This document shows positions 34,887-58,054 of a stretch of DNA of 64,000 nt, piece by piece. Below the pieces are notes generated by a model. The model worked only from the letters and a program-made list of their open reading frames with translations, did not search any database and was not told the origin of the DNA. Source of the stretch: a virus; the IMG/VR virus record IMGVR_UViG_3300026521_000527, positions 32,001 to 96,000 of that record; one strand, given 5' to 3'. Position numbers and translations under genes: made by a program. The first letter of the stretch is position 1, and every line of letters begins with the position of its first letter.

Positions 34887-35135
34887 CTATTGAATTGATT
34901 CGTGATCTAATGTTTTTAATTCAGATTCAAGGCCAATTAAAATTTTATTTAATTCATCGACATCTAGAGTTCCGAATAACTCTTGAATCTGGTCTCTGTA
35001 TGGATTTATCTGCTCTTCGAGAATTATTAATTGCTTTTCAATTTGCTTTTTTTCCTCGAGCAATTTATTTAATTCATCTTTATAATGCTGAGCTTTTTGT
35101 CTAAGCTCGGAATCTGATATACTCTGTTGATTCAT
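34887..35135 (-). CDS. Small coiled-coil protein
   Basis: 82 aa with heptad pattern. Confidence 0.7.
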   Translation of the reverse strand: MNQQSISDSELRQKAQHYKDELNKLLEEKKQIEKQLIILEEQINPYRDQIQELFGTLDVDELNKILIGLESELKTLDHESIQ

Positions 35136-36396
35136 TATATTTTCCTTCCTTTATATCTTTATCAATTTTTGAAATAATTTCAGTACTAACTACTTGGAAT
35201 AATTTTATTCCGTAAATTTTTCCAGCTGTTGTTATTGAATTACCTATAATTGGTGAAGCAAATTGCCAAGTAATTAAACCATAAATACCATAAAGTGAGT
35301 TCAAAGTAACTTTAATTCCCTGCTGCATTGAATTAAATTGAGCTTCTCTTAGTGCAATAAATATTGGTATTTTTTCATGCGCATTTATTTTTTTATTTAT
35401 TTTATGAACTTCAAATTCAATTGTAGTTAGTGAAAAAAGACGTCCCTCTCTGGATTCAGTATCCTCAATCTCATTCAGGATTTGATTAGCCTGCCTTTCA
35501 CTTAAATATAAACCATTCTCTGGGTTTAAAAAGAACTCTTTAGTTTCTTCTGATAGTTTATTATACGCTGATAAAATAGCACCGAGCATTAGACTTCTGT
35601 TTTTAATTATTTTCCTATCATCTAATCCTATTTTAATTAATTCAACATCAAAAGCTAAATTTTCATCATGAAGATCATAAAGCACGCCATAAGGGTTAAC
35701 TATTTTGCGAGAAAATATTTCCCTCATTTCTTTAAGATTTAATTTTTTAAAACTAACTTTAGTTGAATTAAAATTCAGCATAATATAAATATATTTATTG
35801 CGATATTTTTGATCAAAATCATGATTGAAAAAAACATAATCTATTGTCGTTTGATTATATCCTCTATTTTGCGGGCTAACCCAAGTTACCAATTCAAGAA
35901 TTGGATAAAGATAACTTCTAAGTAAAAAATATGAAGTATCATCTTTAGGTTCAAAAATATCTTCTAGAGTTCCTTGGAACTCTAGAAGTTTTCTCAGAAG
36001 TGCTACATAATAATTTGAAGCAAATTCCAACATATCTGCTTTATTCTGTACTGTTTTTCTAGTAAAAAAATCTTTTAATGAACCTATTATAGCATTTGAA
36101 AATCCGGAACATGCTTGGTCAATAATTTCCGGATTATCCTTTTTCTTAGTAAGAACTGTGGCTATTAAATTTAACGTGCGATCAATAATCGCTGGTTCAT
36201 ATATTCTTGCGAATAAAGTATCATACCCAATATTTTGATGCATTAGACTAATTGGATATAGTGCATTAGCATCATTACTACTAACAACCATATCCGGTTC
36301 CAGTCCATAAATTCCAGGCACTGGTTGCTGAACATAAGCACCCTGCACTTTTAGATGCATCGCGAAATTTTTAATTTCTTCAATGGTAAATGCCAT
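35101..36396 (-). CDS. Family B DNA polymerase, middle fragment (motifs A and B)
   Basis: QGAYVQQPVPGIY, VSSNDANALYPIS (motif A), QQGIKVTLNSLYGIYG (motif B), GNSITTAGK; no exonuclease motifs or YGDTDS. Confidence 0.9.
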   Translation of the reverse strand: MAFTIEEIKNFAMHLKVQGAYVQQPVPGIYGLEPDMVVSSNDANALYPISLMHQNIGYDTLFARIYEPAIIDRTLNLIATVLTKKKDNPEIIDQACSGFSNAIIGSLKDFFTRKTVQNKADMLEFASNYYVALLRKLLEFQGTLEDIFEPKDDTSYFLLRSYLYPILELVTWVSPQNRGYNQTTIDYVFFNHDFDQKYRNKYIYIMLNFNSTKVSFKKLNLKEMREIFSRKIVNPYGVLYDLHDENLAFDVELIKIGLDDRKIIKNRSLMLGAILSAYNKLSEETKEFFLNPENGLYLSERQANQILNEIEDTESREGRLFSLTTIEFEVHKINKKINAHEKIPIFIALREAQFNSMQQGIKVTLNSLYGIYGLITWQFASPIIGNSITTAGKIYGIKLFQVVSTEIISKIDKDIKEGKYNESTEYIRFRA

Positions 36397-36416
36397 TTTT
36401 AAAAACCGTTTCTATT

Positions 36417-37262
36417 TTAAAGTTTTTTCATATTTAGATAATATTTTCTCAGATTACCAAGTACTGGGGCAATTGATATATCATTTATATCTGTCGGACA
36501 ATCAATTTTATTAATCATCTTATAAAAATTATTCCTGATAAGGACCGCTTGTTTGACAAGAGTTTTTAATTCAGTAAAGTTATACGCTATACCAACTGCT
36601 TTATAGAACTCTCTGGTCTTTCCTGTCATTCTAATAACATCAATTTTAAATTTATTATCTTTGAATGTAATTCTTACATTTTTAATTAACGATTCTGGTT
36701 TACTACCACCAACTATTTTTTCTTTATAGTTCAATGACACTCTTGGGTTTAATTTAATAATGTCTCCCATAATATCTTCACGATATTCTAGTGCATCTTT
36801 TAGAGCCTTTTTAGCTTCAATTCTATTTCCGTATTCGAATTTAAATAATCTTGAATGGTGTACTCCATCTTTATTTCTTAACATCACTGTCCAATTAGCT
36901 GGACTATTCTCGTCTTTAACATATCTTGTTAAATATATCCCTCTGTAATCATTTTCAGTAATATCAATTCCATGATACATTAAAGCAATCTGTGTTGTTC
37001 CTGGTTTTGTCCCTGATCTCTTTAAAAATTTATACCAAAGATAAGCGTATTCCAATGCTTCCTCTGATGTATCAAAATCACAAACTTTGATAGTTTCATT
37101 AAAAGATTTTGAGTTCTTTGTAACTCTAACCAAGATTGTTTTGAATTCTGAGTCGATATATAAACCTCTTATTTTCGAAAGATCAATGCATGTTAAATTC
37201 AGTTCTCTTTGACTCAATGTTTCGATAAAATTTTGAAGATTGCTTTTTGTATAAGATGTCAT
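36417..37262 (-). CDS. Protein with three tandem AP2-like DNA-binding domains
   Basis: Three units: IRGLYI...EEALEYAYLW; YRGIYL...WTVML...FEYG...ALKDALEYRE; IKNVRI...VKQAVLIRN. No nuclease motif. Confidence 0.5.
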   Translation of the reverse strand: MTSYTKSNLQNFIETLSQRELNLTCIDLSKIRGLYIDSEFKTILVRVTKNSKSFNETIKVCDFDTSEEALEYAYLWYKFLKRSGTKPGTTQIALMYHGIDITENDYRGIYLTRYVKDENSPANWTVMLRNKDGVHHSRLFKFEYGNRIEAKKALKDALEYREDIMGDIIKLNPRVSLNYKEKIVGGSKPESLIKNVRITFKDNKFKIDVIRMTGKTREFYKAVGIAYNFTELKTLVKQAVLIRNNFYKMINKIDCPTDINDISIAPVLGNLRKYYLNMKKL

Positions 37263-37349
37263 TTTATTTCCTTTTGATAATATATTTTGATGTTTTGGTA
37301 TTCAGCGTATTAAAATTATTAAAATTAATGAGAAAATCTGGGCACAGGA

Positions 37350-37385
37350 AATCGGAGTGGTTGGCTTAAGCCAACCACTCCGATT
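37350..37385. repeat. 36-bp perfect palindrome
   Basis: aatcggagtggttggctt|aagccaaccactccgatt, 11 bp after the folE stop. Confidence 0.95.
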
Positions 37386-37396
37386 ATTTAAATTAT

Positions 37397-38407
37397 TTAA
37401 AGGTCTTTTCTAAACTCTTCATCATTATATAGTCCGCCGTATCTCTCAGATGTAAAACAACCATCTTTTGATTTAGCCCCTCTTATGCTTTCACATGTGT
37501 GGACTATATTATTTAAACGAACATAAACATTTTCTGTTCCAGCTGCCTCAGAAACCTTTTTATAAATTTCTTCAGTAAGTTCTTCTTGCAACCAACCTCT
37601 TTGTCCAACCCAATCAACTATTCTTTGTAATTTACTAATTCCAAGAACGTTATCTTCTGGAACATAAGAAATTATTGCATAAGCATCTTCTCTAAATGTT
37701 GATGAAAAAGGAGCAGCATGATGACTACAAACTGCAGTTAAATCAACACGTTTTGTAATTCTATGTTTGATTTTATTATTATTTGGAAATGTTGCCATTC
37801 TTGGAGGTTTGCTCCATCTCCCACTCATTAACTCTCTATCGTCTGTTGTTGATGCACCACACCACATTTTAGCAATTCTTTGGGCAGTTCCAATATTACC
37901 TGTTTCCAAATCGCTCATTACATTTGGATCACTGAGGTCAATTTTCATAGCTCTGAATGATTCCTCAATAAGTTTACCAGTTTTATATCTCATAATAAAA
38001 TGGGCTTCATCTGTCCATTTATAATCTTGCTCAAATATATTTTCATTTATTTTAAAAATAGGAGCCTGCTTATAAGTCTGCAGAGCTTTTGCAAATCCAA
38101 CCACCGTGTTAAATTTGCGATGATATGCCTCAAGTATCTCAAAGAATTCGATAACTTTAGGGTTCGGACTATCTGTTTCATAAAGTTCAATTACTTGATC
38201 TATGATCGGGTTCCCAAACTCAGTGTAATAACCTCTAGGTAAATATAATGTATAGGAATTATTTTTTTTATCGAACTCAATATTTTCCCAAGGTTTATAA
38301 AAATTATTTAATCTAATTTTTACATTATCAGATGATTCTATATGATCTTGGGTACAGATTCTATTTTCCTGTTTTTCAGGAAAATAGATTATTTCAGTAA
38401 CTTCCAT
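37397..38407 (-). CDS. folE: GTP cyclohydrolase I with ~120-aa N-terminal extension
   Basis: TAQRIAKMW, AVCSHHAAPF, YVPEDNVLGISKLQRIV, LQEELT, HTCESIRG. Confidence 0.9.
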   Translation of the reverse strand: MEVTEIIYFPEKQENRICTQDHIESSDNVKIRLNNFYKPWENIEFDKKNNSYTLYLPRGYYTEFGNPIIDQVIELYETDSPNPKVIEFFEILEAYHRKFNTVVGFAKALQTYKQAPIFKINENIFEQDYKWTDEAHFIMRYKTGKLIEESFRAMKIDLSDPNVMSDLETGNIGTAQRIAKMWCGASTTDDRELMSGRWSKPPRMATFPNNNKIKHRITKRVDLTAVCSHHAAPFSSTFREDAYAIISYVPEDNVLGISKLQRIVDWVGQRGWLQEELTEEIYKKVSEAAGTENVYVRLNNIVHTCESIRGAKSKDGCFTSERYGGLYNDEEFRKDL

Positions 38408-38418
38408 TTAAGTTTCCT

Positions 38419-38853
38419 TTACTCTGCTTCTGTTGCTTCTGTTGCTTCTGTTGCTTCTGTTGCTTCTGTTGCTTCTGTTGCTTCTGTTGCTTCTGTTGCT
38501 TCTGTTGCTTCTGTCGCAGCCATTAAAATTTCAATCACACTTTCAAGAACCTGTTTGCCTTCTTCTTCAGTATACTCATCTGGACCTGCAAAATCAAGTG
38601 TGCTTAGATTCTGGTTGTCGTCAAAATTTAATATAATTTCACAAGGGATTTGTGCATCCATGTGTAGTTTAGAAACAACATTGAATACCATAACATCTTT
38701 ATTATCCCTAGTTTCTTTTTGGGCAGCAATTATATAAACACCAGTTTTTTCCATAGCCTCCATTATTTCAGGATTCTCGATAAAAGGTGCAGACCCATCC
38801 ATTTGATAAGAATCCATCTCTACTTTATTTTCAACATTTTCAACATTTTCCAT
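38419..38853 (-). CDS. Acidic hypothetical protein with C-terminal (ATE)10 tract
   Basis: 144 aa; tail encoded by a 9-bp tandem repeat. Confidence 0.75.
   Translation of the reverse strand: MENVENVENKVEMDSYQMDGSAPFIENPEIMEAMEKTGVYIIAAQKETRDNKDVMVFNVVSKLHMDAQIPCEIILNFDDNQNLSTLDFAGPDEYTEEEGKQVLESVIEILMAATEATEATEATEATEATEATEATEATEATEAE
38425..38514. repeat. Tandem repeat (tgcttctgt) x10
   Basis: Counted directly; in frame. Confidence 0.95.
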
Positions 38854-38864
38854 GATAATTCCTT

Positions 38865-39446
38865 TTAATTTAATTGTGCTTCTGGTGCAGTTAACATGCT
38901 ACCAATACCATGATTTCTATAGAAATCAAAATTCATCGTGCCGATAGCCAACACTTTCTGTACTTGTTCCAAATAACTACAAAAAGTTTCGATCTGAAAT
39001 AAAGACTCAATTTCAAATAATGTTTGATTTCCCTTATGTAAAATATTAAAAACTATTTTATCTTTATTAGGAAATCTAATGTATGCTGGTTTTTGATAAC
39101 CAGCATACTCCTCTAATGTACTCGATCCAATTAATATAAATGATGTATTCGAAGCATTTTCAATTATCTCCTTTCTAAGTTTAATTGACTGAATTAATTT
39201 TATAATATTTGCCAAATCCAATTCTATTGTCGGTTCATCTCTAAGATCCCGAGGAATTATATTTGGTGAAGATTGTTTGGAAAATCTCATGATTAGACGA
39301 CCGACTTCATATTGCAATTTAAAATTAATTATAAATTGACAACCCTCATCTGAATGGAATCCTTCAGTTGATCCATAAACTGGAAAATTACCGAAATGAA
39401 GATTACTTTTAAGAGTAATTTTTTGGGAGGTTTTAGATGAAGACAT
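38865..39446 (-). CDS. Hypothetical protein (possible Whirly/PC4-like fold)
   Basis: 193 aa; two beta-beta-beta-alpha-like units (GRLIMRF...IELDLANIIKLI; IVFNI...LFEIESLFQIETF). Confidence 0.6.
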   Translation of the reverse strand: MSSSKTSQKITLKSNLHFGNFPVYGSTEGFHSDEGCQFIINFKLQYEVGRLIMRFSKQSSPNIIPRDLRDEPTIELDLANIIKLIQSIKLRKEIIENASNTSFILIGSSTLEEYAGYQKPAYIRFPNKDKIVFNILHKGNQTLFEIESLFQIETFCSYLEQVQKVLAIGTMNFDFYRNHGIGSMLTAPEAQLN

Positions 39447-39564
39447 AATTTACTTCTTCATATTATTTAAAATCTTTGTCATTAGATGATGCCTGGCATC
39501 CATAAATGGGTTAATATATACCGGCCAGAGATGGGGTGCCAGTACTTTACTTAATTGGATTTTT

Positions 39565-39990
39565 TTAGTCTGATCTTGTTGCATAGAACTCCTTTATAAG
39601 TTTTTTCTGTTTTTCATGTGCAACCGTTATTGCATCTAATACGTCTGGAACATGATCATGATATTTTTGATGACAATGTTTGCAAAGCACTATATAATCA
39701 ACTTCTCTTGCGAAATGTTTTTCCATAACCTCTTCAACAATTTGCAAATCAGTATATTCATATAAATCATCAAGATCAATATGTTTCTGAACGCATGTTT
39801 CAAAAATATCAAAGATTGTTAAAGGATGATGATGGGATTCTGGTTTAACATATTCGAAACTTTCTTTGCAGATAGGACATTCCTTTACTGGATATTTTGT
39901 AATTTTTTGCCAGCTCGCATAACTCATACTACCTCTTGCAATTTTTACTAAGTGTTTAATACATTTTACGAAAGATCTTTCATTAGTCAA
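39565..39990 (-). CDS. Zn-binding HNH-like protein
   Basis: CPIC...ESHHHP...IVLCKHCHQKYH. Confidence 0.6.
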   Translation of the reverse strand: MTNERSFVKCIKHLVKIARGSMSYASWQKITKYPVKECPICKESFEYVKPESHHHPLTIFDIFETCVQKHIDLDDLYEYTDLQIVEEVMEKHFAREVDYIVLCKHCHQKYHDHVPDVLDAITVAHEKQKKLIKEFYATRSD

Positions 39991-40025
39991 ATCGTAATTG
40001 TACCAAATATTACTTCCTTTTTTAT

Positions 40026-40877
40026 TTATCCCAAGTATCCTCCTTTTAAATTTATCTCTTTTTTATAAGCACTATTTAATGCGAATTTGAATTTAGTCAA
40101 AGTATTATGATCTGTTGTGATATATTCAATAAATTGATCTCCATCCTCCGAAAGAGACATTATGTAATCATTGTAAATTATTGATCTATTTTTACTAACA
40201 TAAAATTTAAATGAAAATCCTTTTCGGTAGTATCTTTTTTTATTTTCGACATCAATAAAAATAAAAAGAATTTCATTTGTCTTTTTTAGAACTTTTATAT
40301 CAAAAAGAGTTAATTCTAATTCATCAATTATTTCTTGATTTATCTCTTTTAAAAAAGTATTGTCCGATTTGTATTGCTTAAGAAGTTCTTGTTCTTTTAA
40401 ATCCTTTTCTTTTTCAGCAACTTCGAGTGCTTTAGTAACAATTTCTTTTCTATCTTTTGATTTAATATTTATTTTTTTATCAAGTGTTTGGCTTTGGATA
40501 TTTTTAGCCTCATGTATACTTAATGCAGCTTTTGAGTCAATTAACTGACAATCCCTTAACTTATGAAATTCTTCTAACTTATTATCTCGTTGAGGAAAAA
40601 ACTTCCAGGTGTTAAAACGAGAAGCGATTGGATTCCATTTTACCAATAACTGAATAGTTTTTATACTTTCAATTGGATCTGGAATATTAAATAGATCGTT
40701 AAAATATTTGCCGAAAATCCTTGTTAAGTGTGGACTGAACCAGAATTGTTCATGCAAATAAGGTACTATACCATTGAGTCTAGATTTATTAAAAATAAAA
40801 TCTTCTGGTATTTTAGCACCTGAAAAAATTAAGTTATTAACCTGACTAAAAGTAATCTGTTGTGACTTTTGCATCAA
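40026..40877 (-). CDS. Hypothetical protein
   Basis: 283-aa ORF. Confidence 0.7.
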   Translation of the reverse strand: MMQKSQQITFSQVNNLIFSGAKIPEDFIFNKSRLNGIVPYLHEQFWFSPHLTRIFGKYFNDLFNIPDPIESIKTIQLLVKWNPIASRFNTWKFFPQRDNKLEEFHKLRDCQLIDSKAALSIHEAKNIQSQTLDKKINIKSKDRKEIVTKALEVAEKEKDLKEQELLKQYKSDNTFLKEINQEIIDELELTLFDIKVLKKTNEILFIFIDVENKKRYYRKGFSFKFYVSKNRSIIYNDYIMSLSEDGDQFIEYITTDHNTLTKFKFALNSAYKKEINLKGGYLG

Positions 40878-40886
40878 TGACCTTTA

Positions 40887-41570
40887 TCAACTACTTCCGT
40901 AGGTATATGATTTATTATATAATTCTTTAAATTTTTTAACCTCTTTGGAGTACGTAAAAAATTTATCCAGATTTACTGTCTTTGTCACTTTATCGAATTC
41001 ATAATGCCCTAAACAATAATCATTAATATATCTCGGCTCAAAATTAAACCCATAAGTTATTGAATCTCCTTGAATTGAAATCTCAGGATGAGTCTCTTTT
41101 AACTCTTTTAACACTTCTACCGGAATTACCCTAAATTTTACTACAACTTTGGTTTCATCATTAAATTTAACGATATCTGGATTTAATAAAATATAATAAT
41201 CTGCTTCAGTTACTGAAAGACCGGATGGTTTTTTCCTTGGGAGATTCCCAATAGAATTATCTTCTTTATATGTCTCAATAAAAATATTCTTAGATACAAA
41301 GCTTGATATTTTAATTTCCAATTTTGTATTATCAGATAATTGAACATCGAACTCTGGTGCAAATCCTAAAGAATAATACTTAGGTTGAATACCATTGTTT
41401 AATAATTGGCAAAATTTCTTCGAGACTAAAGTCTCAAAGAAATAATCCAAGTATTCTTTATCAGATCTTGTCCAATCAGAAAGAGTTCCAATATTTATTT
41501 TTTTATCTTGAGTCCAGTAGAACTCTTTCATTGCGCAAGAACCTTTACATGACTTTTCGGAGTCTCCCAT
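40887..41570 (-). CDS. PD-(D/E)XK nuclease-family protein (true start probably 41531)
   Basis: PEFDVQL...LEIKIS...NIFIET...KPSGLSVTEADYY; ATGA overlap with the queD stop. Confidence 0.6.
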   Translation of the reverse strand: MGDSEKSCKGSCAMKEFYWTQDKKINIGTLSDWTRSDKEYLDYFFETLVSKKFCQLLNNGIQPKYYSLGFAPEFDVQLSDNTKLEIKISSFVSKNIFIETYKEDNSIGNLPRKKPSGLSVTEADYYILLNPDIVKFNDETKVVVKFRVIPVEVLKELKETHPEISIQGDSITYGFNFEPRYINDYCLGHYEFDKVTKTVNLDKFFTYSKEVKKFKELYNKSYTYGSS

Positions 41571-42136
41571 AACTCAACTCCAGTTACTTTGACATGTTCA
41601 AGATCTTTTAATTTATTAGTAGCTATTCTTAGTAACCAGCCAGCAATATTTTCAGAAGTTGGTATAAAATCGACTAATACTATCCCTTCATATTTTTCTT
41701 TTACAGCTTTATCTTTTTCTTCATCGGACTGCAAATCAATACCTAATTTATTCAGATCTGGTATAAAATATTCATCTATTTTAAATACATTTTTTAACTC
41801 ATTATCCTCAAATAATCTTGGTAATTCATCTTGCAAAAGAGGATCATTTATGTCAAAAAGCATTTTGTGATCCAATACATCATCTATAAAATCTTTCATG
41901 AACCCAATCATTTTAAAGTCTAAAACCATTCCGGTATCTTTTATATTGTCACCTGGAATTGTCTCCTCGAGTAAAATCTTTGCTCTATAAGAATGCCCAT
42001 GAAGATGCCTACAAGCACAGCACGAATCTCCTCTATGAGTATATTTTGTATCAAGAGTTTGACTCCATACCCTATGTCCAGCTTCCCAGTGAAATTCTTT
42101 ATCGATGATTGTTTTTGTAGTTTGTATTCTTTGCAT
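41528..42136 (-). CDS. queD: 6-carboxy-5,6,7,8-tetrahydropterin synthase
   Basis: KEFHWEAGHR, CRHLHGHSY, GMVLDFK, LDHK, PTSENIA, VELWETP. Confidence 0.9.
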   Translation of the reverse strand: MQRIQTTKTIIDKEFHWEAGHRVWSQTLDTKYTHRGDSCCACRHLHGHSYRAKILLEETIPGDNIKDTGMVLDFKMIGFMKDFIDDVLDHKMLFDINDPLLQDELPRLFEDNELKNVFKIDEYFIPDLNKLGIDLQSDEEKDKAVKEKYEGIVLVDFIPTSENIAGWLLRIATNKLKDLEHVKVTGVELWETPKSHVKVLAQ

Positions 42137-42165
42137 AATTTTCCTTTAGCTTTAACTATTTGCTT

Positions 42166-42182
42166 TAATATTTTTATATACT
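42166..42182 (-). promoter_or_regulatory. Candidate promoter motif AGTATATAAAAATATTA
   Basis: Variant of the 1010/29776 motif, 30 bp upstream of queD. Confidence 0.4.
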
Positions 42183-42188
42183 GTTTAA

Positions 42189-42222
42189 CTTGGACTAGAG
42201 TGATTAATCACTCTAGTCCAAG
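42189..42222. repeat. 34-bp perfect palindrome
   Basis: cttggactagagtgatt|aatcactctagtccaag. Confidence 0.95.
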
Positions 42223-42338
42223 GCTAGTTTAAAAATCTTTTATATTGATAAATTTAAAAACATTATGTTGGTTTCTGACTGACTCTTTCTTTTTTGATTT
42301 AATTTTAATTAATTTAAAAAATATTTTATTTATGAATT

Positions 42339-43214
42339 TCATGTGTCTCCTTGTGTACTATTGAATTCATTTCGAAGTCTACCCGAAATATCAACAATTC
42401 TCCTAATTAAAGTAGTTGAATTAAGTATGCCCTTAACTGTATTGACATTCTTTTCCCTAAGTATTTTTTGCAGTTGATGATTGAATCTAGAAATTCTCGT
42501 AAGTCTAGAAACACTTGTAAAAAATTCATGAATCGAAACCCACCAAAGAAATTTTTCATCTTCGGTAAAATTAGGATTCACATGTGAGTTTTCAATCAAA
42601 TATCTCGAATTCCTAAGCAAATTTAAAATTCGATTATACATAAAAGACGATATTACTTCAGTAATTGCATCAACTGTATTCTCCACATTTTCAATCGGCT
42701 CTGTAAATTCTTTAGAAAAAAACTGAGTGAATTCGGCACTAAAAATTGTAATTCTTGCATCTATTCGGTTTGTCAAAATTTGCTCTAATGGGTATAATTT
42801 ACTTGGCCTTTTAAAATTCGGGCTCAGTACTATTAAACCATCTTCTATAAAAGTAACCAACCACTTATGATCTAACCTTAGTAAATTTGACTGCAATTTA
42901 TTTACAGTCATTATTTTCTTGCCATCGAAAAGCTCTTTATGTTGGTATATATTTTCAAAAACAGAATCCAGAATGAATTTAACATCTGCTTCATTTGGAC
43001 CTCCGTATTTGATTTTACCACATCTCCAAGGAGTTAAAACATCAGATAGAACTATCTTAAGCAGTTTTCTAAAAATTTGCGTATTGTATTTAGACTGAGC
43101 AGCTGATCTAAAAGCTATTTTTATTTTGAATTCATTATCTGAATAAAGTGCCTCAATAATCATATCAATTAGCTTATCTATTTCTACGCCACTTTCAGTT
43201 GCTATTCTACTCAT
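42339..43214 (-). CDS. Hypothetical protein, paralog of 43207..44148
   Basis: IKIAF...SKY..QIFRKLLK...HKELFDGKKIMT...NLLRLDHK.L..FIEDGLIVLSPNF. Confidence 0.75.
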   Translation of the reverse strand: MSRIATESGVEIDKLIDMIIEALYSDNEFKIKIAFRSAAQSKYNTQIFRKLLKIVLSDVLTPWRCGKIKYGGPNEADVKFILDSVFENIYQHKELFDGKKIMTVNKLQSNLLRLDHKWLVTFIEDGLIVLSPNFKRPSKLYPLEQILTNRIDARITIFSAEFTQFFSKEFTEPIENVENTVDAITEVISSFMYNRILNLLRNSRYLIENSHVNPNFTEDEKFLWWVSIHEFFTSVSRLTRISRFNHQLQKILREKNVNTVKGILNSTTLIRRIVDISGRLRNEFNSTQGDT

Positions 43215-44148: not shown

Positions 44149-44166
44149 GTTTATCCTTTGATTAAT

Positions 44167-45830: not shown

Positions 45831-47378
45831 TTATTTTACTAATAAACCTTCTTCAAGAGATATCTGAATACCTTGAACACCTTTTAATGGAATACCACCT
45901 TGTGTCATAATCCAAAAACTAAATACATTTTTAAAGATTTCAGCATTATACACCTGTTCGATATCACTATAGTTATCACTGAATGATAAATATGTAAATT
46001 TTAATTTAGGATGTTTTTCTTTAATATCGAGAATTGCATCAAAAACTTCTTTATGACTTGTACCTCCACAAGCAATCCTTTTTTGAATAAATTCAGAGAT
46101 ACTTAATTTATCATTCTTTTGGAATCTTTTAATTTCAGCAATTTTATGATCATGAATAATTATATCAACGAACACTGTTTTTTCAACAAGTTCATTAATT
46201 ACGAAATTTATTTTTTTAAGATCAGAATCAGACATTGAGCCACTTTGATCTATCGATATTATCGCAGCAAGATTATCCTCATAATAAATTCTACCAGGCA
46301 TTGGTGAAATATGTCTAAATTTAGATTTTAATTTCCCCCAGGTTTGATCACTCTTATTCGTATGGTGTCTTACTAAAGCCTGCAAGCTTCCTTTTAATAA
46401 ATGAAACCAGTCAACTGGAACTTCGTAATCAACACCAAGATCTCTAAGGGTTCCAGATGAACTGGAACCAGGTTCTCTTGTTTTATCTAAAAGATCTTTA
46501 TATGCCCTCTCAAGCATCTCTTTAGCCTCGTTATCAATGTTCTCACCGTTTGATCCATTTAAATCATCTTCATTTTCACCAAAATTCGGTTTTCCTTCAA
46601 GTTCAAGAAGGGTTGAAGTATTCCCCATAACTGTAATTTTCGTCATCGTACCTAAACCGTCTATTTTGGTACACTCGATTTCAGCATCTTTTAAAATACT
46701 TTCAAGAATTTCGACTTGTGATAATTTATTTGGAGATAAATTTTTATCGTAGAGTCCATTGAAGTTTTCATTATATAATGAAAACATATGACCTTGTCGC
46801 GCTTGTTCAATTAAGTAACCATTAATATAATAATCAAAAGCGTAATTAAGAATTTGATGCATGGCTTTTTCCGGAATATCAGGACGCACTCTTTTTATGA
46901 CTTTTTTATATTTAATATTTAAATAAAAATCATAATGTCTGTTCATAATATGTAGAGTTTCATGTAAATATATAAAAGCAACTTGCGCAGTAACTTTTTG
47001 ACTATATAGCGCAATTTTAAAAAAATCATCCCAGGATTCATCTTCTTTTTTAGATAATGTTATGTTTACAACTAACTCATTTGATTTATTTTTATCAGTT
47101 TCTGCTTTGATAAATCCACCAATCCTAAAATCATCATAATCAAAATTTTTATTTTGAGAAATATGTTTTGGGTTTTTTTCAAATGCTTCCTGCATCTGAG
47201 CAAGTTCTGCGTTTGAAGTCTCGTGAAATTCAAATTTCACTGGCATCAACATCAATAACTCAAGCAAATCTGGATTGCTTGAGTATGCTGATTTCATAAT
47301 AGGGACTGATTTTACCATCAGTCTACTAGTCATTGCGCTATATTTTTTAATTAATTTATATTGGTCTTCCGATATCAT
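45831..47378 (-). CDS. DUF2201-like metallopeptidase-VWA protein
   Basis: YLHETLHIMNRH (HExxH) and IISIDQSGSMS (MIDAS DxSxS), GGTSH; follows a MoxR-like ATPase. Confidence 0.85.
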   Translation of the reverse strand: MISEDQYKLIKKYSAMTSRLMVKSVPIMKSAYSSNPDLLELLMLMPVKFEFHETSNAELAQMQEAFEKNPKHISQNKNFDYDDFRIGGFIKAETDKNKSNELVVNITLSKKEDESWDDFFKIALYSQKVTAQVAFIYLHETLHIMNRHYDFYLNIKYKKVIKRVRPDIPEKAMHQILNYAFDYYINGYLIEQARQGHMFSLYNENFNGLYDKNLSPNKLSQVEILESILKDAEIECTKIDGLGTMTKITVMGNTSTLLELEGKPNFGENEDDLNGSNGENIDNEAKEMLERAYKDLLDKTREPGSSSSGTLRDLGVDYEVPVDWFHLLKGSLQALVRHHTNKSDQTWGKLKSKFRHISPMPGRIYYEDNLAAIISIDQSGSMSDSDLKKINFVINELVEKTVFVDIIIHDHKIAEIKRFQKNDKLSISEFIQKRIACGGTSHKEVFDAILDIKEKHPKLKFTYLSFSDNYSDIEQVYNAEIFKNVFSFWIMTQGGIPLKGVQGIQISLEEGLLVK

Positions 47379-48576: not shown

Positions 48577-48639
48577 TATATATTCCTTTTATTTTTTTGA
48601 TTTTAATTTTATTATAATAAGTTTATGGGTTGTAGTCTT

Positions 48640-50127: not shown

Positions 50128-50139
50128 ATTAATCTCCTG

Positions 50140-50571: not shown

Positions 50572-50588
50572 GTTTAACCTTTTAAAAT

Positions 50589-53210
50589 TTATACTTTATT
50601 AAATTCTGGATCTACACCTTTTGCTTGTAGAAATCTATCTAAATCTTTCACATAACTTTTTGCTCCAGTATAAGAATAATAATGCATATTTGCTCGCATG
50701 TTTTTTTCCCGAGATGATGAAACATTACCGTCGTCACTCGATTGTGACGCATGAATTATATCAAGTGCTCCTTTTGCGCCCTGTTGCCAAGCCATATACA
50801 CATTTCTTAAATTCGCAGGTAATCCATGATTATTTAGATATTTAATAATGTACTTTTCGCGTTCAGCGCACATTCTATCCTGATTCTCCGGAGTCCATAT
50901 TTCAGGACTATTTGGATCCAATCCAATTTTTTTAGCGTACTCGTTTGCAGTACCATCTAAAAATTGATACGCTCCTCTAGCACCTGTTGTTGGATTTATC
51001 GCTTCGTATCCTTCAGGAACATTACCCGCAAGTCCAGTTGATTCAACTTTAGCAATTTCCGCACAATAAACTCCAGCTGATATTTTATCTAGAGTTTTTG
51101 ATGAACCATTACCTTCAATTCTAAAAGCTCCAGCAAATTGCTTATCCCAATATGCTACACGATTACCTCCTTTACCAGTAGTGTATCTTTTTTCAATACT
51201 TGCTCCTTTACATGGATTTGATTTGGTACAAGAACTTGCTGGACGATATGGAGTAACTCTAGAACTACTTGCCATAACTTCAGTTTGACTTTTAGCAATC
51301 CCAACATGATGCACTCGATTAATATCAGCAGTTGTAGATAAAAATATAATATCTCCAGCTTGAACTTCATCATAATCTATTGGGGACGCATATCGTCTAC
51401 ACCAATCTGCTTGTGCCTGCGAACCTTTTGGAAAAGCATCTTTTGACATTCTCCCACCATATTTTTTTAAACCAGTTGCTAAACACACAGAGGTCATTAC
51501 AAAACCACTACAATCATACCATCCAGATTCAGCACCACCCCAAAGATATCTAAATCCTTTTTTAATTAAGGCTTCCGCTGTTTTAGCAATATCATTTGAT
51601 GTTCCTTTTATATTCAATTGCCCATTATAAGGAGAACCAGCACCATATATAACACCATTTATAGAAACACTTCCAGTTGATGGATTAATAGTTTCTATTA
51701 TATTATTCTTTAATTTGGATATCTGTTTAGAAATATCTAGAAGTATATTGGTATCTTGAGGTTCAACATTCTCAGTCATTAAGAACTCAATCTTAGCTTT
51801 ACATTTAAATGTTTTTTGATTATCTTCATTATTAGTCTCGCTTTCAAAGAATGAAATAGTTTCGACTACAGTTGGTGTGAAAACCCACTCAATTCTATAA
51901 GCAGGCCCTTTTCTAGCATTTTCAATAACAGTATTATCTTCACTAATAAATTTATCTTTAAAAAGGGCTTTTTTTATATCCAAATGTCCCCAGGCAATAT
52001 TATCCACTTCATAAGTTTCATAATTAGGGTTCATTTCATAATACTTTCTAAAATAACTTAATTGTTTAATTAAATCATTCTCAGATAAAAAAGAATATAT
52101 TCTTTTTACTTTTGGGTTAGGAATTTGCTTAACTTGTAGATGATCCCCACATGAAATATACTTTTCAGTGATTTTATTAATTGATGTTGAATCAATTATG
52201 GTTGGTACATTATCCGATGTCTGGACTAATTGAATTAAAGGATCTTTTGAATTAGATTCAAATTTTAATTTATCAAAATATGGTCTATCCTCTATTTTAC
52301 TGATTTTAAAATATCTAGCTTCGTCCAAATATGTTTGATGTCTAGGTCTAATCAAAGGTGTAAGAAATTTATCTTCTTCCCATGACCGAGGAATATAAAA
52401 ATCAGTTACAATTAGCTCTGTTGAGTTTTTTGAATTTAATGGCAAATCATCTTGAATCCAATTAAAAGGCGTAAGATATGGAGGGTAATTTTTAAAAAAT
52501 TCTTCTAGAATTTTAAAATTATTATCTGATTTAAATACATAACCGCTTGTTGGAATAGAGGTTGATATTGTTTTTAAATCGGTTGAACTATCATTCATGT
52601 AAATAAGATGAGTTGAGTTCGAACTCAACTCATCTGAATTTTCTATATAATCACCATAACCTTCGGTTCCCATTTTAGGAGATACTTTTGAACCATAATT
52701 AGTGTATGTTTCTAAAAATATTTGCTCTATGTGTCCGAGCAAAAATATACGTGGATTTGATTTACCATATTTAAGACTGGTTTGACTAGTAAACCCAAAA
52801 TTATTTTCAAGAAGCATTCTTCCAAGAGTCCAAGATATAAGTCTTAAGTTCACAGAGTATAAATTATTTCCACCAATTCTTTTCGTTTCAATTTTTCCCA
52901 TCTCCTCAATTTTAAAAACATTACTACTTGATGAAAGATTCGTGGTATCTGTATTGTCTTTTTCATGAATATAACCAGATGTTATTGTAATTGATATTGA
53001 ACACCCACCGGATGTAATTATATTTAACTGATCTATAGTTAATAATTTTAATTCTAGATATAGTTCAGTTTTATGAGATTCATAAGACTTTAAAACTCTA
53101 AGTTCATTGATGTTGTAATGAGTTAAATCAAACTCTTTTATTTGGCCATTTTCTTTTGAATCTATAACTTCATGAATCTTAATTTTCAGATCATTAAAAT
53201 AGGCTTGCAT
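50589..53210 (-). CDS. Baseplate hub / tail-associated lysin with NlpC/P60 and lytic transglycosylase-like domains
   Basis: YLWGG...YDCSGFV...AGDIIFL...HHVGI (NlpC/P60); IAKVES...ARGAYQFLDGT...AWQQG (SLT/lysozyme-like); long N-terminal hub-like region. Confidence 0.75.
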   Translation of the reverse strand: MQAYFNDLKIKIHEVIDSKENGQIKEFDLTHYNINELRVLKSYESHKTELYLELKLLTIDQLNIITSGGCSISITITSGYIHEKDNTDTTNLSSSSNVFKIEEMGKIETKRIGGNNLYSVNLRLISWTLGRMLLENNFGFTSQTSLKYGKSNPRIFLLGHIEQIFLETYTNYGSKVSPKMGTEGYGDYIENSDELSSNSTHLIYMNDSSTDLKTISTSIPTSGYVFKSDNNFKILEEFFKNYPPYLTPFNWIQDDLPLNSKNSTELIVTDFYIPRSWEEDKFLTPLIRPRHQTYLDEARYFKISKIEDRPYFDKLKFESNSKDPLIQLVQTSDNVPTIIDSTSINKITEKYISCGDHLQVKQIPNPKVKRIYSFLSENDLIKQLSYFRKYYEMNPNYETYEVDNIAWGHLDIKKALFKDKFISEDNTVIENARKGPAYRIEWVFTPTVVETISFFESETNNEDNQKTFKCKAKIEFLMTENVEPQDTNILLDISKQISKLKNNIIETINPSTGSVSINGVIYGAGSPYNGQLNIKGTSNDIAKTAEALIKKGFRYLWGGAESGWYDCSGFVMTSVCLATGLKKYGGRMSKDAFPKGSQAQADWCRRYASPIDYDEVQAGDIIFLSTTADINRVHHVGIAKSQTEVMASSSRVTPYRPASSCTKSNPCKGASIEKRYTTGKGGNRVAYWDKQFAGAFRIEGNGSSKTLDKISAGVYCAEIAKVESTGLAGNVPEGYEAINPTTGARGAYQFLDGTANEYAKKIGLDPNSPEIWTPENQDRMCAEREKYIIKYLNNHGLPANLRNVYMAWQQGAKGALDIIHASQSSDDGNVSSSREKNMRANMHYYSYTGAKSYVKDLDRFLQAKGVDPEFNKV

Positions 53211-53222
53211 ATTAATTCACCT

Positions 53223-54053
53223 TTAATCTAATTGTCTATCTATATGAATCCTAGGGCTGTATGTTATACCAAGTGATAGTGCTTTTCTGCTAGTTGCATC
53301 CATTGATTTTTTCCAAACGGTGCTATCTTTATCCAGAGGATCATTTGGTGTAAACGGCATTAAGATTATATTTTTTTTTGGAACATTTAATTCCTCAGTC
53401 AGATATTTTATAAACATCTGAGTAGTATTAAATGAAATTGATTCATCAGTGTAATCATAAATAAATTTATAGAATACATTATATTGACGAAGATATGAGT
53501 TTATATTATTAAAAACATTAAAGTACATAGCATTGACTTCAGCTTGAGTTAGTTGATCCTCATAACAACTGGTTGCGTTTATTTTTGGAGATATTGTTAA
53601 GGTTGGAGTTACTCCTAAATCATGAATAATTTCATTAAATGATTTTATTAAAGCCAAACAATTCTTTTCATCACTTAAAAGGTTTCCATTTGACTCAATT
53701 CCAAGGAATTCAAAATGTTTAAAATTTACCGAGTCTGCAGTTCTAAATATATCTGGAAACCACTCCATAAAATGTAATGGTTCACCACCAGTGATCGTTA
53801 ATCTCTCAGGAGATACTTTTTCAAGTTCTTTTGCCATATCGATCATCAATTTACGGTCATCAAATGCTTTATATTGAGGAGCATCACCCCATGAGAATTT
53901 AGTATCACAGAAAGAACAAGCTGCCGAATAACAACCAGCTAACCTTAAATATAAACTAGGCTCTCCTATTGAATTTCCTTCACCTTCTAATGAAATAAAC
54001 CACTGAGATATTTTTGGAGCAATTACTGACTGGTTAAAATTTAATTCTTTCAT
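53223..54053 (-). CDS. queE: 7-carboxy-7-deazaguanine synthase (radical SAM)
   Basis: SLEGEG...LRLAGCYSAACSFCDT, TITGGEPL, IESNG, SPK, PRIH. Confidence 0.9.
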   Translation of the reverse strand: MKELNFNQSVIAPKISQWFISLEGEGNSIGEPSLYLRLAGCYSAACSFCDTKFSWGDAPQYKAFDDRKLMIDMAKELEKVSPERLTITGGEPLHFMEWFPDIFRTADSVNFKHFEFLGIESNGNLLSDEKNCLALIKSFNEIIHDLGVTPTLTISPKINATSCYEDQLTQAEVNAMYFNVFNNINSYLRQYNVFYKFIYDYTDESISFNTTQMFIKYLTEELNVPKKNIILMPFTPNDPLDKDSTVWKKSMDATSRKALSLGITYSPRIHIDRQLD

Positions 54054-54093
54054 ATTTTTCCTTTTATATTATTATTTAATTTATTTAAAAAAT

Positions 54094-54127
54094 GATTAAT
54101 GAGTGAGTCTAGACTCACTCATTAATC
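54094..54127 (-). terminator. 34-bp perfect palindrome overlapping the stop of the Pol exonuclease gene; T-run follows on the minus strand
   Basis: gattaatgagtgagtct|agactcactcattaatc followed by atttttt on the minus strand. Confidence 0.75.
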
Positions 54128-55162
54128 CAATAAAGGAAAGAATATTTCCCTATTGAATTTTTTGACACGAGTTATTTTAGACTGTTTTGTATAAATTAAA
54201 TTATTTCTATAACTATACATTCTGCTTCTTCCAGAGACTGCCGCACTCATTGGACTTGTATTATATTTAGTCAACATCCAAACCTGCTCCATAAATTCTA
54301 ATTTTTCATCAATTTTAAATGTCAAAATAGTATCTAGAAGGTTGTATGTTAAAAATCGAACTATGTTGTTTATGTACTCATAATTCATATCCTCCAAATC
54401 CAATTTTGTAATTCCAAGTTCTTGCATTGCTACAGTACCCAATTTATAATTTGGTAATGATGAACCGAGACCGCTTCCACCTTGATCAACTGGTTTATAT
54501 AATTTTAATAGATCAATTAATAGATAATCCGGCCAATCATAATTATTATCTGAGAATTTATGAACCTCATTAAATTCAGAAATAAAACTATAAATGCTAT
54601 CGCCTGCTAATCTATGTCCTCTGTTTACAACATAAGGGTCATCAAAAATACTACTATTAAACCCAATAAGAAAAAGAGGATTATTACTCCGAGTATCTAA
54701 GAAGAACTCTTTTAAGAGTTCTTCTTCACTCTGAAATGTTCTAATTTCTAACTCCATTCCAGGAACTTCATAAACCGGATTTTCTTTAATTAATTCATTA
54801 TATAATTCTTGAACCCCAGTTTTTAATACACTTGCTTCTGTTATATTTGAATTATATGGTGTACAATAAATAATAGCTTTATTTAATAAGTTATTATACA
54901 CTGCAATTGAATTAACAGGATAGTCAACTCTTACCGCATCAGGAAATACCTCAGGATCATAATGAACCTCAATATCATAATATGACTTATTAAGTGTTTT
55001 TTTGACTGGATCGCTCTCCTTAAACTTAGTCATGAAATCTTGAAATTCACTCTCATCTGGGCTCAATTCTAGATTATAAAACTGGTGAAATTTTAATTCA
55101 CCAGTTTTAAGTGACTGCATCATCTTATAAAGATCGCCAGAATTTAATTTATATTTATCCAT
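54122..55162 (-). CDS. Family B DNA polymerase, 3'-5' exonuclease fragment
   Basis: ExoI YYDIEV, ExoII IGFNSSIFDDPYV, IDLLKLYK...NYKLGTVA..ELG, ExoIII YNLLDT; no polymerase motifs. Confidence 0.9.
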   Translation of the reverse strand: MDKYKLNSGDLYKMMQSLKTGELKFHQFYNLELSPDESEFQDFMTKFKESDPVKKTLNKSYYDIEVHYDPEVFPDAVRVDYPVNSIAVYNNLLNKAIIYCTPYNSNITEASVLKTGVQELYNELIKENPVYEVPGMELEIRTFQSEEELLKEFFLDTRSNNPLFLIGFNSSIFDDPYVVNRGHRLAGDSIYSFISEFNEVHKFSDNNYDWPDYLLIDLLKLYKPVDQGGSGLGSSLPNYKLGTVAMQELGITKLDLEDMNYEYINNIVRFLTYNLLDTILTFKIDEKLEFMEQVWMLTKYNTSPMSAAVSGRSRMYSYRNNLIYTKQSKITRVKKFNREIFFPLLD

Positions 55163-55176
55163 TTATATAAACTCTT

Positions 55177-55986
55177 CTAGAATAATTTATTTTTTAATTG
55201 AGTTATTTTTGACTCAATTGAAGTTATTAAATCATTAATCTCGTCATCTTTCGTATTTTTAAATTCGTCCAGAATATTTGGATGAACTTTAAGTATATTT
55301 TTTAAGGTTTTGGTGTAGCTGTATGATTTGGGACTCTTTTGAGTGCTTTGTAACTCATCATAAGAATATTTATCAACCAACTCAATATATAAGTCTGATG
55401 GTATTTCAATATCCCCGACAATAATATGAGTAGCCAGTCCTCGTTGACACATTTCATAAGCACCGAAATATAAATCATTACCCGATAATATATTATTGAT
55501 CTCATCGGAAGTTAATTGTGGAACCAACTCGTCTATTATATCAAAAGTTAATTTATTATAATATTCAGTATATGAAGTAATCACTTGTCCTCTTCCAGAT
55601 ACAGTTGATTTATAATTATGAAACATTAATGTACTTGATTCATATATTACTCTTTTTTCTCCAATCATGAAGATATATGCTGCCGCGCTCATCGCCTCCG
55701 GATTAATTTTAGTAATTATTCTTGCACCAGTGTTTTGGAACTCATTTATCAATCTATATGCTTCATCCATATAACCCCCAGGCGAAGCAAGATTTAACTC
55801 AATTATATCTTTAGATTGTATTTCTTTAATATTTTTAATTATATTAAATAAACTAACTCTTGACCCCTCAAGCTCATGAATATAAAAGGAGTGAATTTTT
55901 ACATCATGATTTTGAATTAAGCCAATGTTATTTTGATTATAGCTATGAAAACACTCTTTATCAGAATATGTATCTTTTCTCGCCAT
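55177..55986 (-). CDS. ClpP-like (S14) serine protease
   Basis: LNLASPGG, AMSAAAYIF (Ser), LMFHN (His), DLYFGA..GLA. Confidence 0.8.
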   Translation of the reverse strand: MARKDTYSDKECFHSYNQNNIGLIQNHDVKIHSFYIHELEGSRVSLFNIIKNIKEIQSKDIIELNLASPGGYMDEAYRLINEFQNTGARIITKINPEAMSAAAYIFMIGEKRVIYESSTLMFHNYKSTVSGRGQVITSYTEYYNKLTFDIIDELVPQLTSDEINNILSGNDLYFGAYEMCQRGLATHIIVGDIEIPSDLYIELVDKYSYDELQSTQKSPKSYSYTKTLKNILKVHPNILDEFKNTKDDEINDLITSIESKITQLKNKLF

Positions 55987-55990
55987 ATTT

Positions 55991-56497
55991 TTAATCCTTT
56001 ATTAAATCTTGAATTGCTGACGCCAGATCTCTTATCTCCCATAAAGCATCTTTAGAAGTTCTAAGCTTAATAAAATTATCTAGTTTGTCGTGACTAATTG
56101 TCATAGTTAAAGTTGTTTTGTAACTCTCAGGTAAAGCGTATTTAATTTTATCATTGGATTTATTTTGAAGAATTAATTTTCTGACATTTTCGAGTGCCGA
56201 AATACTGGCTCGATCAATTTCAACATCTCCTGTCATAACTAGATATTTTTCAGCCCTGATAAAATCATCTGGTTTCTTTTTTTTAAATTTATCTTCCATC
56301 TTCAATTCTTTTAAAGTATATCTGGTTGATTTTACACTGAAGACAGCTTCATGCCTAACTATCTCTTGCAGACATCCTCTAGAAATACCCTCAATAAAAA
56401 AAGTGTAAAATCCAAAATTAGATGAGTCATCACCTATAAAATGTTTTAATGTTATTTTCATTCTATTCTCCCTCAAAATATTCTTTATATAATTCAT
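55991..56497 (-). CDS. thyX: Flavin-dependent thymidylate synthase, catalytic-core fragment (true start probably 56461)
   Basis: YTFFIEGISRGCLQEIVRH..FSVKSTRY, KYALPESYKT, NFIKLR, ALWEIRDLA; lacks the N-terminal RTC/H.S..H segment. Confidence 0.8.
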   Translation of the reverse strand: MNYIKNILRENRMKITLKHFIGDDSSNFGFYTFFIEGISRGCLQEIVRHEAVFSVKSTRYTLKELKMEDKFKKKKPDDFIRAEKYLVMTGDVEIDRASISALENVRKLILQNKSNDKIKYALPESYKTTLTMTISHDKLDNFIKLRTSKDALWEIRDLASAIQDLIKD

Positions 56498-57053
56498 CTA
56501 TTTTCTTTTCGATTGGAAACACACCAACTTTACCAAATAATATTACAGTACCATCAACAACTTCTATTTTTTTATCATTTGAGTCAGTAATAACTCCACT
56601 TTCATAAAAATTATATTTATTTCCTTCTATGTCAATTATTTTTTTATTTATCAATAATTGAATAATTTCAGAATAATCATATAAATCTACAATTAAATCC
56701 CCTAAAATTTTTTTATTTTGGTATAATGTTCTTGCATTTATGACACCAACTTTCGTCGATTGATTATAAAAACTATACTGATCGGTTTTTAAGAACTCAA
56801 TTATACTTTTTTGAGCTGCATTAATAGATGGGTTATTATATGAACTATCTATATTTAATTTAAAAATTATATTCAGATGAGCAAGTATAGAGAAATGTTT
56901 AAATTTTTTACCAACTCTTACAATGAGTTTTTTATCACTCTCTCCTATGGTATCACATACAGAATCAGATTTTGAAAAACTATCCCAACATGTTCTTGTG
57001 GCATTAGCCGCAACAATCAAAGGTGTCTCTTTTAATAGTGTAAAATTTTTCAT
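56463..57053 (-). CDS. ThyX N-terminal segment fused to an unrelated C-terminal region
   Basis: TPLIVAANATRTCWDS...DKKLIVRVGKKFKHFSILAHLNIIF matches the N-terminus of Campylobacterota-type ThyX as I recall it. Confidence 0.7.
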   Translation of the reverse strand: MKNFTLLKETPLIVAANATRTCWDSFSKSDSVCDTIGESDKKLIVRVGKKFKHFSILAHLNIIFKLNIDSSYNNPSINAAQKSIIEFLKTDQYSFYNQSTKVGVINARTLYQNKKILGDLIVDLYDYSEIIQLLINKKIIDIEGNKYNFYESGVITDSNDKKIEVVDGTVILFGKVGVFPIEKKIDELYKEYFEGE

Positions 57054-57073
57054 CTATTTCCTTTTTATTTTTA

Positions 57074-58054
57074 TTATGAATTACGATGCGACATAAACTC
57101 AATATTATTTCGCCTAGTTTCATCAGAAAATATCTTTTGAAACTGATCAATTTTTTTATCAAGATTAAATTCTATAATTGACTTTAAATCAAATTTAATA
57201 TCGATTTCTTTAAAAACCTCGAAAACATTTTTAATTTCATCATCGGTCATATCTACTGGGAATGAAATTGTTTTTAATTTATGATTAATATCCTCCTTTT
57301 GAATTTGGTATTTAGTCTTACTTGGATGTTCGTCATAATACTGCAATAATCTTGATGGGTTTATAATTAACTGAACTTGAAATAAACTCTCACCTGGCCG
57401 CAAAACATCCCTAAATAAATAATTATAGAGCATCGCACCAATTACTTGTGGAGGTACCTGTTTGTATTTATTATTAGACCATTTTTTCGGTATACCAAAG
57501 TCAGTAAAATGTTTCTGTTGAACTGATTTTATAATTCTATTTAAGTATTTTTTATAAATTCTTCCATATATCTCTTTATAAAGAGTATCTTCATCCTGAA
57601 TTGATAAATCAAGGAGTACTTTTTTATAAATTTCAGTCAATAAATCAAAAACTATTCGAGTACTATCAGACTTAAGAATTTGACCACCTGTTTTCTTAAG
57701 AGCTAAATTTTCAAATAATTTTCCTTCATCATACATCTTTGCCATTCCGTAATTTTTTTTAGTATTATACATTGCCCGTGCGGCGATAATCTCACTCTTA
57801 AAAAACATATGATTATATTTTGGATTAACATTACCAAATTTTTCGACGGTTTCTGTAAAAATATCCCGATATATTTTATTAATATCCTCGGCCATATCCA
57901 GACAAAATTTTACGGTCCTATTTAAATCATCCAATTTATTAAATGGTATTTTAGACTGGGAGTAAGATGAATCTGTATCCCCATATAAAGACCATTCACT
58001 GAAGTCAATTGTTTCAATAAACCCAGGTTGTATTAAGTTATTTAAAACATTCAA
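57074..58054 (-). CDS. Family B DNA polymerase, C-terminal fragment (motif C and thumb)
   Basis: LYGDTDSSY, FKSEII, KKNYG, KTGGQILKSD. Confidence 0.9.
   Translation of the reverse strand: MNVLNNLIQPGFIETIDFSEWSLYGDTDSSYSQSKIPFNKLDDLNRTVKFCLDMAEDINKIYRDIFTETVEKFGNVNPKYNHMFFKSEIIAARAMYNTKKNYGMAKMYDEGKLFENLALKKTGGQILKSDSTRIVFDLLTEIYKKVLLDLSIQDEDTLYKEIYGRIYKKYLNRIIKSVQQKHFTDFGIPKKWSNNKYKQVPPQVIGAMLYNYLFRDVLRPGESLFQVQLIINPSRLLQYYDEHPSKTKYQIQKEDINHKLKTISFPVDMTDDEIKNVFEVFKEIDIKFDLKSIIEFNLDKKIDQFQKIFSDETRRNNIEFMSHRNS

Follow-up and report, generated by a model that had tools for sequence, protein, structure and literature searches.

Can a replicative DNA polymerase be encoded by three separate genes that lie out of domain order and carry nothing to splice their products together? 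The question is raised by a 64,000-nucleotide stretch of viral DNA, positions 32,001 to 96,000 of the IMG/VR record IMGVR_UViG_3300026521_000527, in which the parts of a family B DNA polymerase (PolB) lie in three open reading frames (ORFs). This whole stretch is called the window hereafter. Its source record is a 136,864-bp viral contig with a CheckV completeness of about 49%; the G+C content of the window is about 30% and its genes form long arrays on one strand. As predicted from the sequence, the only recognisable DNA polymerase of this uncultured jumbo phage consists of three separate genes in scrambled order without splicing elements. Database comparison points to a strongly conserved three-gene PolB common to well over a hundred relatives. 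We consider it probable that the three genes give rise to a functional, non-covalently assembled three-chain family B replicase, a heterotrimer.

Three polymerase genes in the window

All three genes lie on the minus strand. The exonuclease piece (P0001; 54122-55162; 346 amino acids, aa) comprises a short N-terminal region and the 3'-5' proofreading domain with motifs Exo I-III. The middle piece (P0002; 35101-36396; 431 aa) holds the first palm strands with motif A, an insertion, the fingers with motif B and the next palm helix, and the thumb piece (P0003; 57074-58054; 326 aa) the last palm strands with motif C, a KKNY motif, the thumb and, at the C terminus, a conserved tail (..DQFQKIF..). 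The thumb ORF begins with a TTG start codon, six bases 3' of the Shine-Dalgarno sequence GAGGAG. On the coding strand the order is thumb, exonuclease, middle, with intergenic gaps of 1,911 bp (thumb to exonuclease) and 17,725 bp (exonuclease to middle); between the thumb and exonuclease genes stand thyX and a gene for a Clp-like protease. The original prediction had placed three ORFs at these positions, out of domain order and about 2 kb and 18 kb apart, with the polymerase motifs divided among them, and the profile searches and translations described below agree with it.

The PHROG profile for PolB, phrog_262 (856 positions), is shared out among the three ORFs without overlap: P0001 takes positions 99-349 (E 1e-32), P0002 positions 380-549 (E 2e-16) and P0003 positions 574-767 (E 2e-13). 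Pfam recognises DNA_pol_B_exo1 (PF03104) in P0001 (E 7e-13; 49 bits, cut-off 23) and DNA_pol_B (PF00136) in P0002 (33 bits, cut-off 23), and has no match for P0003. In the translations, the PolB exonuclease motifs are read in P0001 as YYDIEV (Exo I), FNSSIFDDPY (Exo II) and YNLLDT (Exo III). P0002 contains GAYVQQP, motif A as DANALYP (residues 42-48, with D42 in the catalytic position) and motif B as KVTLNSLYG (its lysine being K362), while P0003 contributes motif C as LYGDTDSS together with KKNY and the thumb.

The pieces can be laid end to end on RB69 gp43. A profile search places the exonuclease piece on RB69 residues 108-360 (E 8e-23), and the same piece matches residues 103-356 of the T4 gp43 exonuclease fragment 1noy. 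Residues 8-427 of the middle-piece model fall on RB69 residues 385-614 (3kd1_E, the top VIA-align match; Z 11.2, root-mean-square deviation 4.1, 210 residues aligned), and a thumb profile built from four orthologues falls on residues 612-780 (E 2e-7). The three pieces are thereby confirmed as complementary, consecutive segments of one T4/RB69-type PolB. The first cut, at about RB69 residues 365-385, separates the N-terminal/exonuclease region from the palm. It lies near the end of 1noy, which is a laboratory fragment of the T4 gp43 N-terminal exonuclease; the two boundaries are similar, but the cut in the window is natural and conserved. The second cut, at about residues 605-612, falls in the loop preceding the motif C hairpin. 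Compared with P0095, a relative in which the middle and thumb parts are fused, the window's pieces carry only about 10-12 extra residues at the break points, and these tails align with native PolB sequence.

One tail deserves a separate remark. The last 12 residues of P0002 (YNESTEYIRFRA; window 35101-35145) were aligned by MAFFT to YSDTDSAYLRY, the motif C stretch of the fused relative, and this C-terminal tail is found only in the window's own subclade. Its likeness to motif C may be due to chance or may be a relic.

Conservation and gene order among relatives

The middle piece has 110 database homologues at 35-86% identity, nearly all of 405-455 aa and covering about 95% of P0002; D42, Y47, P48, K362, N366 and G370 are invariant in an alignment of 81 sequences. 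For the exonuclease piece, 142 database proteins are found at E<=1e-20. Among the 120 matches listed most have 345-372 aa, the shorter ones spanning part of the query, and the Exo I, II and III residues are invariant in four orthologues. An exhaustive HMMER search with the thumb piece yields 146 cluster representatives, of which the closer ones are mostly stand-alone proteins of 290-345 aa with a common start point; motif C is intact in three of four aligned thumbs and interrupted by an intein in the fourth. Several contigs, for instance those of 290,373, 260,474 and 178,762 bp, hold both middle and exonuclease members. A profile was needed to find these phages: a scan of IMG/VR with the single middle-piece protein returned no close relatives. 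In about 50,000 GenBank phage records, tblastn with the middle and thumb pieces found short motif-level matches only and no cultured relative. One stand-alone exonuclease homologue, P0320, carries the NCBI name 'MAG: 3'-5' exonuclease [Sphaerochaeta sp.]' and probably stems from a phage contig that was assigned to a bacterial metagenome-assembled genome (MAG).

Between the middle gene and that of its closest relative, which comes from a different sample, the nonsynonymous divergence (dN) is 0.086 and the synonymous divergence (dS) about 1.27, a value near saturation, so that dN/dS is about 0.07. The ORFs that flank the middle gene on the relative's contig match those of the window in size and order. 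Large families of uniform length, conserved catalytic residues and this low ratio together indicate that the three-gene layout is not a product of decay.

Five relatives were scanned whole with phrog_262, and each of the five gave exactly three PolB matches, the thumb gene always lying upstream of the exonuclease gene. In G001 (281 kb, 100% complete) thyX and the Clp-like protease gene stand between thumb and exonuclease genes, as in the window, and about 24 kb separates the middle from the exonuclease gene. The thumb and exonuclease genes are 13 nt apart in G004 (273 kb, 97% complete), overlap by 4 nt in G003 (IMGVR_UViG_3300037010_003311; 227 kb, 81% complete) and in G006 (a 92-kb fragment), and overlap by 1 nt in G007 (a 38-kb fragment); the distances from middle to exonuclease gene are here about 72, 38, 9 and 7 kb, respectively. 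Taken over the relatives, 7-75 kb separates the middle gene from the other two. The genes had been described as unlinked, a term that fits the thumb and exonuclease genes only loosely, since these abut or overlap in four relatives.

No further PolB match is present in the window's 137-kb record, nor any PolA or Pol III alpha match above the cut-off, and nothing in G001, G003 or G004 reaches the cut-offs for PolA or Pol III alpha. As the window's record is about half complete, the absence of another polymerase rests on the relatives. An intact PolB elsewhere in the genome, which the original prediction had named as incompatible with its reading, was not seen: the complete G001 and the nearly complete G004 hold the three pieces only. 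It is scarcely credible that the pieces are the remains of a defunct polymerase gene in decay, or an assembly artefact, in a phage replicated by some unseen or host polymerase. Such an explanation could draw on a record that covers about half a genome and on the many neighbouring ORFs without annotation, but it conflicts with the recurrence of the three pieces on many contigs that are independent of one another and come from different samples, with the invariant catalytic residues and low dN/dS, and with the two near-complete relatives that have no other polymerase.

Inteins, gene breaks and alternative layouts

The polymerase had been proposed to be split without inteins, and the window bears this out. 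By Pfam none of the three proteins has an intein domain, whether PF14890 or another Hint domain, Rfam at gathering thresholds finds no intron, nor anything else, in the window, and the ends of the window's pieces show no split-intein halves (IntN or IntC), the same test being positive in G003. In that relative a split intein interrupts the thumb gene precisely at motif C (L019:420-2005), which brings its PolB to four ORFs: a 152-aa ORF has the extein end ..YSDTD and then IntN, and after a 122-nt spacer a second ORF has IntC (..VHN), SAY.. and the thumb. The absence of inteins is thus a property of the window's pieces and not of the lineage, in which inteins occur at motif C and motif A of relatives.

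Another layout is seen in the distant relative G009 (L021:1-3728), whose thumb gene lies directly upstream of an 809-aa fused exonuclease and middle gene, giving a two-part, permuted polymerase. A mini-intein sits within its motif A (..DLDQ / SLTG...LVHN / TSMYPS), and its thumb gene has a second intein adjoining motif C, before TDS, within which the contig begins. Several other thumb relatives carry whole inteins at the motif C site. Five thumb relatives of 665-693 aa were considered as possible fusions and rejected; P0151, the sole one scanned with Pfam, is a thumb holding a LAGLIDADG intein.

These inteins lie within catalytic motifs, away from the gene breaks. Since they are off the breaks and the tails are short and native-like, the breaks in the window are not intein scars. 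Dead-intein docking tags at the piece ends were also considered and rejected, the tails being too short and aligned with native PolB sequence. The active inteins of the lineage, split at motif C in G003 and located at motif A and beside motif C in G009, would lend some colour to a joining of the pieces after synthesis, by split-intein protein trans-splicing or RNA trans-splicing, into a conventional PolB. We regard this as very improbable for the window, where the proteins have no Pfam intein domain, motif C is intact, the Rfam search is negative for introns, and the ends align seamlessly with the fused P0095, the few residues left over being too few for intein halves.

How the fused P0095 arose was approached with a tree of the middle pieces, obtained by a quick search and with a long outgroup branch. 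P0095 is nested in a well-supported clade of eight members together with the middle piece of G004, which has a separate thumb, and the thumb is also separate in the outgroup, G009. Because of these two separate thumbs, a secondary re-fusion is the more parsimonious reading of P0095.

Homing endonuclease genes are found near some of the polymerase pieces. Gene fission driven by endonucleases has been proposed for T4-like phages (PMC2988022) and, by analogy, would be a plausible origin of the three pieces. Homing or HNH endonuclease genes are also scattered in the genome (window 11797-12816, plus strand; 45831-47378, minus strand), and one is located directly upstream of the fused P0095 gene (L017:1-543).

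Structure and predicted assembly

The AlphaFold2 model of the middle piece has a predicted local distance difference test score (pLDDT) of 88.9 and a predicted template modelling score of 0.82. Folded alone, the piece leaves residues 20-43, the motif A strands, unstructured (pLDDT about 41-53). Its Foldseek matches in the Protein Data Bank (PDB) are weak (best E 0.055) and all to RB69 or T4. The palm-fingers-thumb fold is recognised through the VIA-align match of this model and through P0095 (745 aa), a natural fusion of middle and thumb that has no exonuclease part. The P0095 model (pLDDT 91.3) matches RB69 gp43 with a Foldseek E of 6e-15; here the motif A strands are structured and lie alongside the motif C hairpin, and the junction is a linker of lower confidence (residues about 416-427). 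As indirect evidence, the comparison of P0095 with the lone middle model fits a palm sheet that would stay incomplete until the middle and thumb chains come together.

Between motif A and the fingers, P0002 contains an insertion domain of about 200 aa (residues about 66-266; window 35599-36201, minus strand), modelled confidently as mostly helices with a small sheet. This domain is not part of RB69 or T4 gp43: a PDB profile search pairs P0002 residues 21-65 with RB69 393-432 and residues 267-389 with RB69 465-591, so that about 200 positions stand opposite 32 RB69 residues. P150, Y156, E168, W172, N177, G237, R261 and K265 are invariant in the 81 sequences. No structural relative of the insertion stood out in the PDB comparison, where the helical-bundle rows at Z of about 6 are uninformative. 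We see in this domain a candidate scaffold holding the chains together.

In the three-chain replicase that we favour, the exonuclease chain would provide proofreading and the polymerase active site would be built across the other two chains. The middle chain would bring the fingers, the aspartate of motif A and the motif B helix that binds deoxynucleoside triphosphates, and the thumb chain the aspartates of motif C, the primer contact made by KKxY and the thumb that grips the DNA. As the cuts lie at domain borders and the tails do not exceed about 12 residues, docking between the pieces is probably by way of native interdomain surfaces. It may be aided by the lineage-specific insertion next to the palm, and the adjacency of the thumb and exonuclease genes in most relatives would favour their co-production. 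A more specific version, with an obligate three-chain enzyme, the insertion as assembly clamp and a dissociable proofreader co-produced with the thumb, is offered tentatively, as one that we would not quite call probable.

The main alternative to a three-chain complex is a stable polymerase of middle and thumb, for which the exonuclease piece would act as editing subunit, either on its own or loosely attached, much as epsilon serves Pol III alpha. The exonuclease piece has no added docking segment, P0095 joins the other two parts without it, and its cut from the middle piece nearly coincides with the end of the T4 gp43 exonuclease fragment that it matches and that was solved alone (PDB 1noy, 388 aa). 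Still, the thumb and exonuclease genes are tightly adjacent in four relatives, which suggests paired production, and in G009 the exonuclease is fused to the middle part. In PolBs, moreover, the thumb contacts the exonuclease domain. On balance we hold a free proofreader to be unlikely.

Several points weigh against the three-chain replicase. We infer the physical assembly, stoichiometry and activity of the chains, as well as the role of the insertion. With a record about 49% complete, another polymerase may be encoded elsewhere in this genome. The exonuclease chain is without an obvious docking extension, so its binding may be weak. The alignment behind the P0095 fold contained five intein-bearing thumb proteins, and the model nevertheless kept a high confidence. 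A search for longer proteins in which the middle piece is fused to another part found none, which is weak evidence.

Comparison with known split polymerases

Divided PolBs are known in Archaea. The enzyme of Nanoarchaeum equitans is encoded by two genes with split-intein halves, through which the two parts are covalently rejoined, and that of Methanothermobacter consists of two subunits from separated genes. Nanoarchaeum equitans is resembled by G003, with its split intein at motif C, whereas the pieces of the window have no intein halves.

In phages, the existence of two-part PolBs, to which the original prediction had appealed, is well documented. PhiKZ, a chimallivirus, has a PolB made of two chains, DNAP-N (gp82) and DNAP-C (gp50), characterised by cryo-electron microscopy and activity assays (Basu et al. 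2026 preprint, PMC13648687). In this structure D562 is on DNAP-N and D426 on DNAP-C, so motifs A and C are on different chains of an active enzyme, and an insertion in the palm, at a position similar to that of the window, wraps the palm (PMC13648687). The gene for gp50 lies at 40.6 kb and that for gp82 at 78 kb, the C-terminal subunit being encoded 35 kb before the N-terminal one. The PolB of AR9 is also in two parts. The window and PhiKZ share many traits: both come from jumbo phages with multisubunit RNA polymerase genes, both have PolB in separate chains without inteins, with motifs A and C on different chains and a large helical insertion after motif A, and in both the genes are distant and out of order. 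PhiKZ differs by having two chains, a single cut inside the palm insertion and motif A on the exonuclease-bearing chain. In the window there are three chains and two cuts, before motif A and before motif C, with an uncut insertion and motif A on the middle piece and not on the exonuclease piece. Comparison of the window's pieces with PhiKZ gp50 and gp82 by hhalign gave probabilities of 0.1-1.8%, that is, no detectable sequence similarity; the pieces are closest to T4/RB69 gp43.

RNA polymerase beta-prime-like segments (PF00623) occur in the window's source record, outside the window (G000:C1:107603-107938 and 130033-130407), and G001, G003 and G004 encode such segments too. The phage thus has multisubunit RNA polymerase pieces, like PhiKZ and AR9. 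In this respect the clade is similar to the 'group 1' jumbo phages described by Iyer et al. 2021 (PMC7824862), although its PolB pieces are nearest to T4/RB69 gp43.

The second phage example is that of the Aeromonas phages 25 and 44RR. In phage 25, gp43A and gp43B purify together and are active in polymerisation with no protein splicing involved (Petrov, Ratnayaka and Karam 2010, as cited in PMC2988022). These phages resemble the window in having a T4-type PolB in separate cistrons and no protein splicing, and differ in having two adjacent pieces in normal order. Two-part forms of gp43, with a cut between motifs A and B and normal order, were represented here by phrog_2062 and phrog_1918. P0002 matches the end of the former (380-445) and the start of the latter (31-75), and so spans their cut, which sets the window apart from this type.

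A three-chain enzyme with the catalytic aspartates of motifs A and C on different polypeptides had been expected to be more unusual than the two-part forms. The distribution of the aspartates is already known from PhiKZ (PMC13648687), and what is apparently new is the third chain and the position of the breaks. The open-access literature yielded two-part PolBs and no description of a three-chain PolB or of these break points, and the papers on moraphages and marine jumbo phages make no mention of a split PolB.

Neighbouring genes

The thyX gene is interrupted in the window (55991-57053, minus strand). The ORF at 56463-57053 encodes ThyX residues from about 8 to 108 followed by about 130 unrelated residues, and the overlapping ORF at 55991-56497 resumes ThyX at residue 102 or so, the insert being about 440 nt long. 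Rfam finds no intron at this interruption, and thyX is intact (262 aa) in G001.

Genes for a GTP cyclohydrolase and for QueD-like, QueE-like and QueC-like proteins (37397-38407, 41528-42136, 53223-54053 and 61588-62931, all on the minus strand) are intermingled with those of the polymerase. Their predicted products suggest the synthesis of 7-deazaguanine (preQ0-type) compounds and hence perhaps a modified phage DNA. Two adjacent genes a short way downstream of the middle piece (30066-31430 and 31451-33343, minus strand) encode a type II topoisomerase and match the T4-style subunit families phrog_551 and phrog_543.

Implications

Phages of this kind will be under-called or counted three times in surveys that use PolB as a marker gene. 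The database labels of the pieces are inconsistent, ranging from '3'-5' exonuclease' and 'hypothetical protein' to 'DNA polymerase elongation subunit'.

The layouts that coexist in this lineage, namely a thumb with a fused exonuclease and middle gene, a fused middle and thumb, and four ORFs with a split intein, make it well suited to studying how the gene of an essential enzyme is split, reordered and fused again. As these other layouts survive in related phages, the successive steps could be reconstructed.

If the three chains do assemble, a replicative PolB would tolerate cuts both at the border of exonuclease and palm and inside the palm sheet, extending the two-chain cases of PhiKZ and the Aeromonas phages, and the natural break points could be used for the engineering of split polymerases. 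Should the obligate three-chain reading prove true, the phages of this clade would offer a clade-wide natural example of a PolB rebuilt as a modular holoenzyme.

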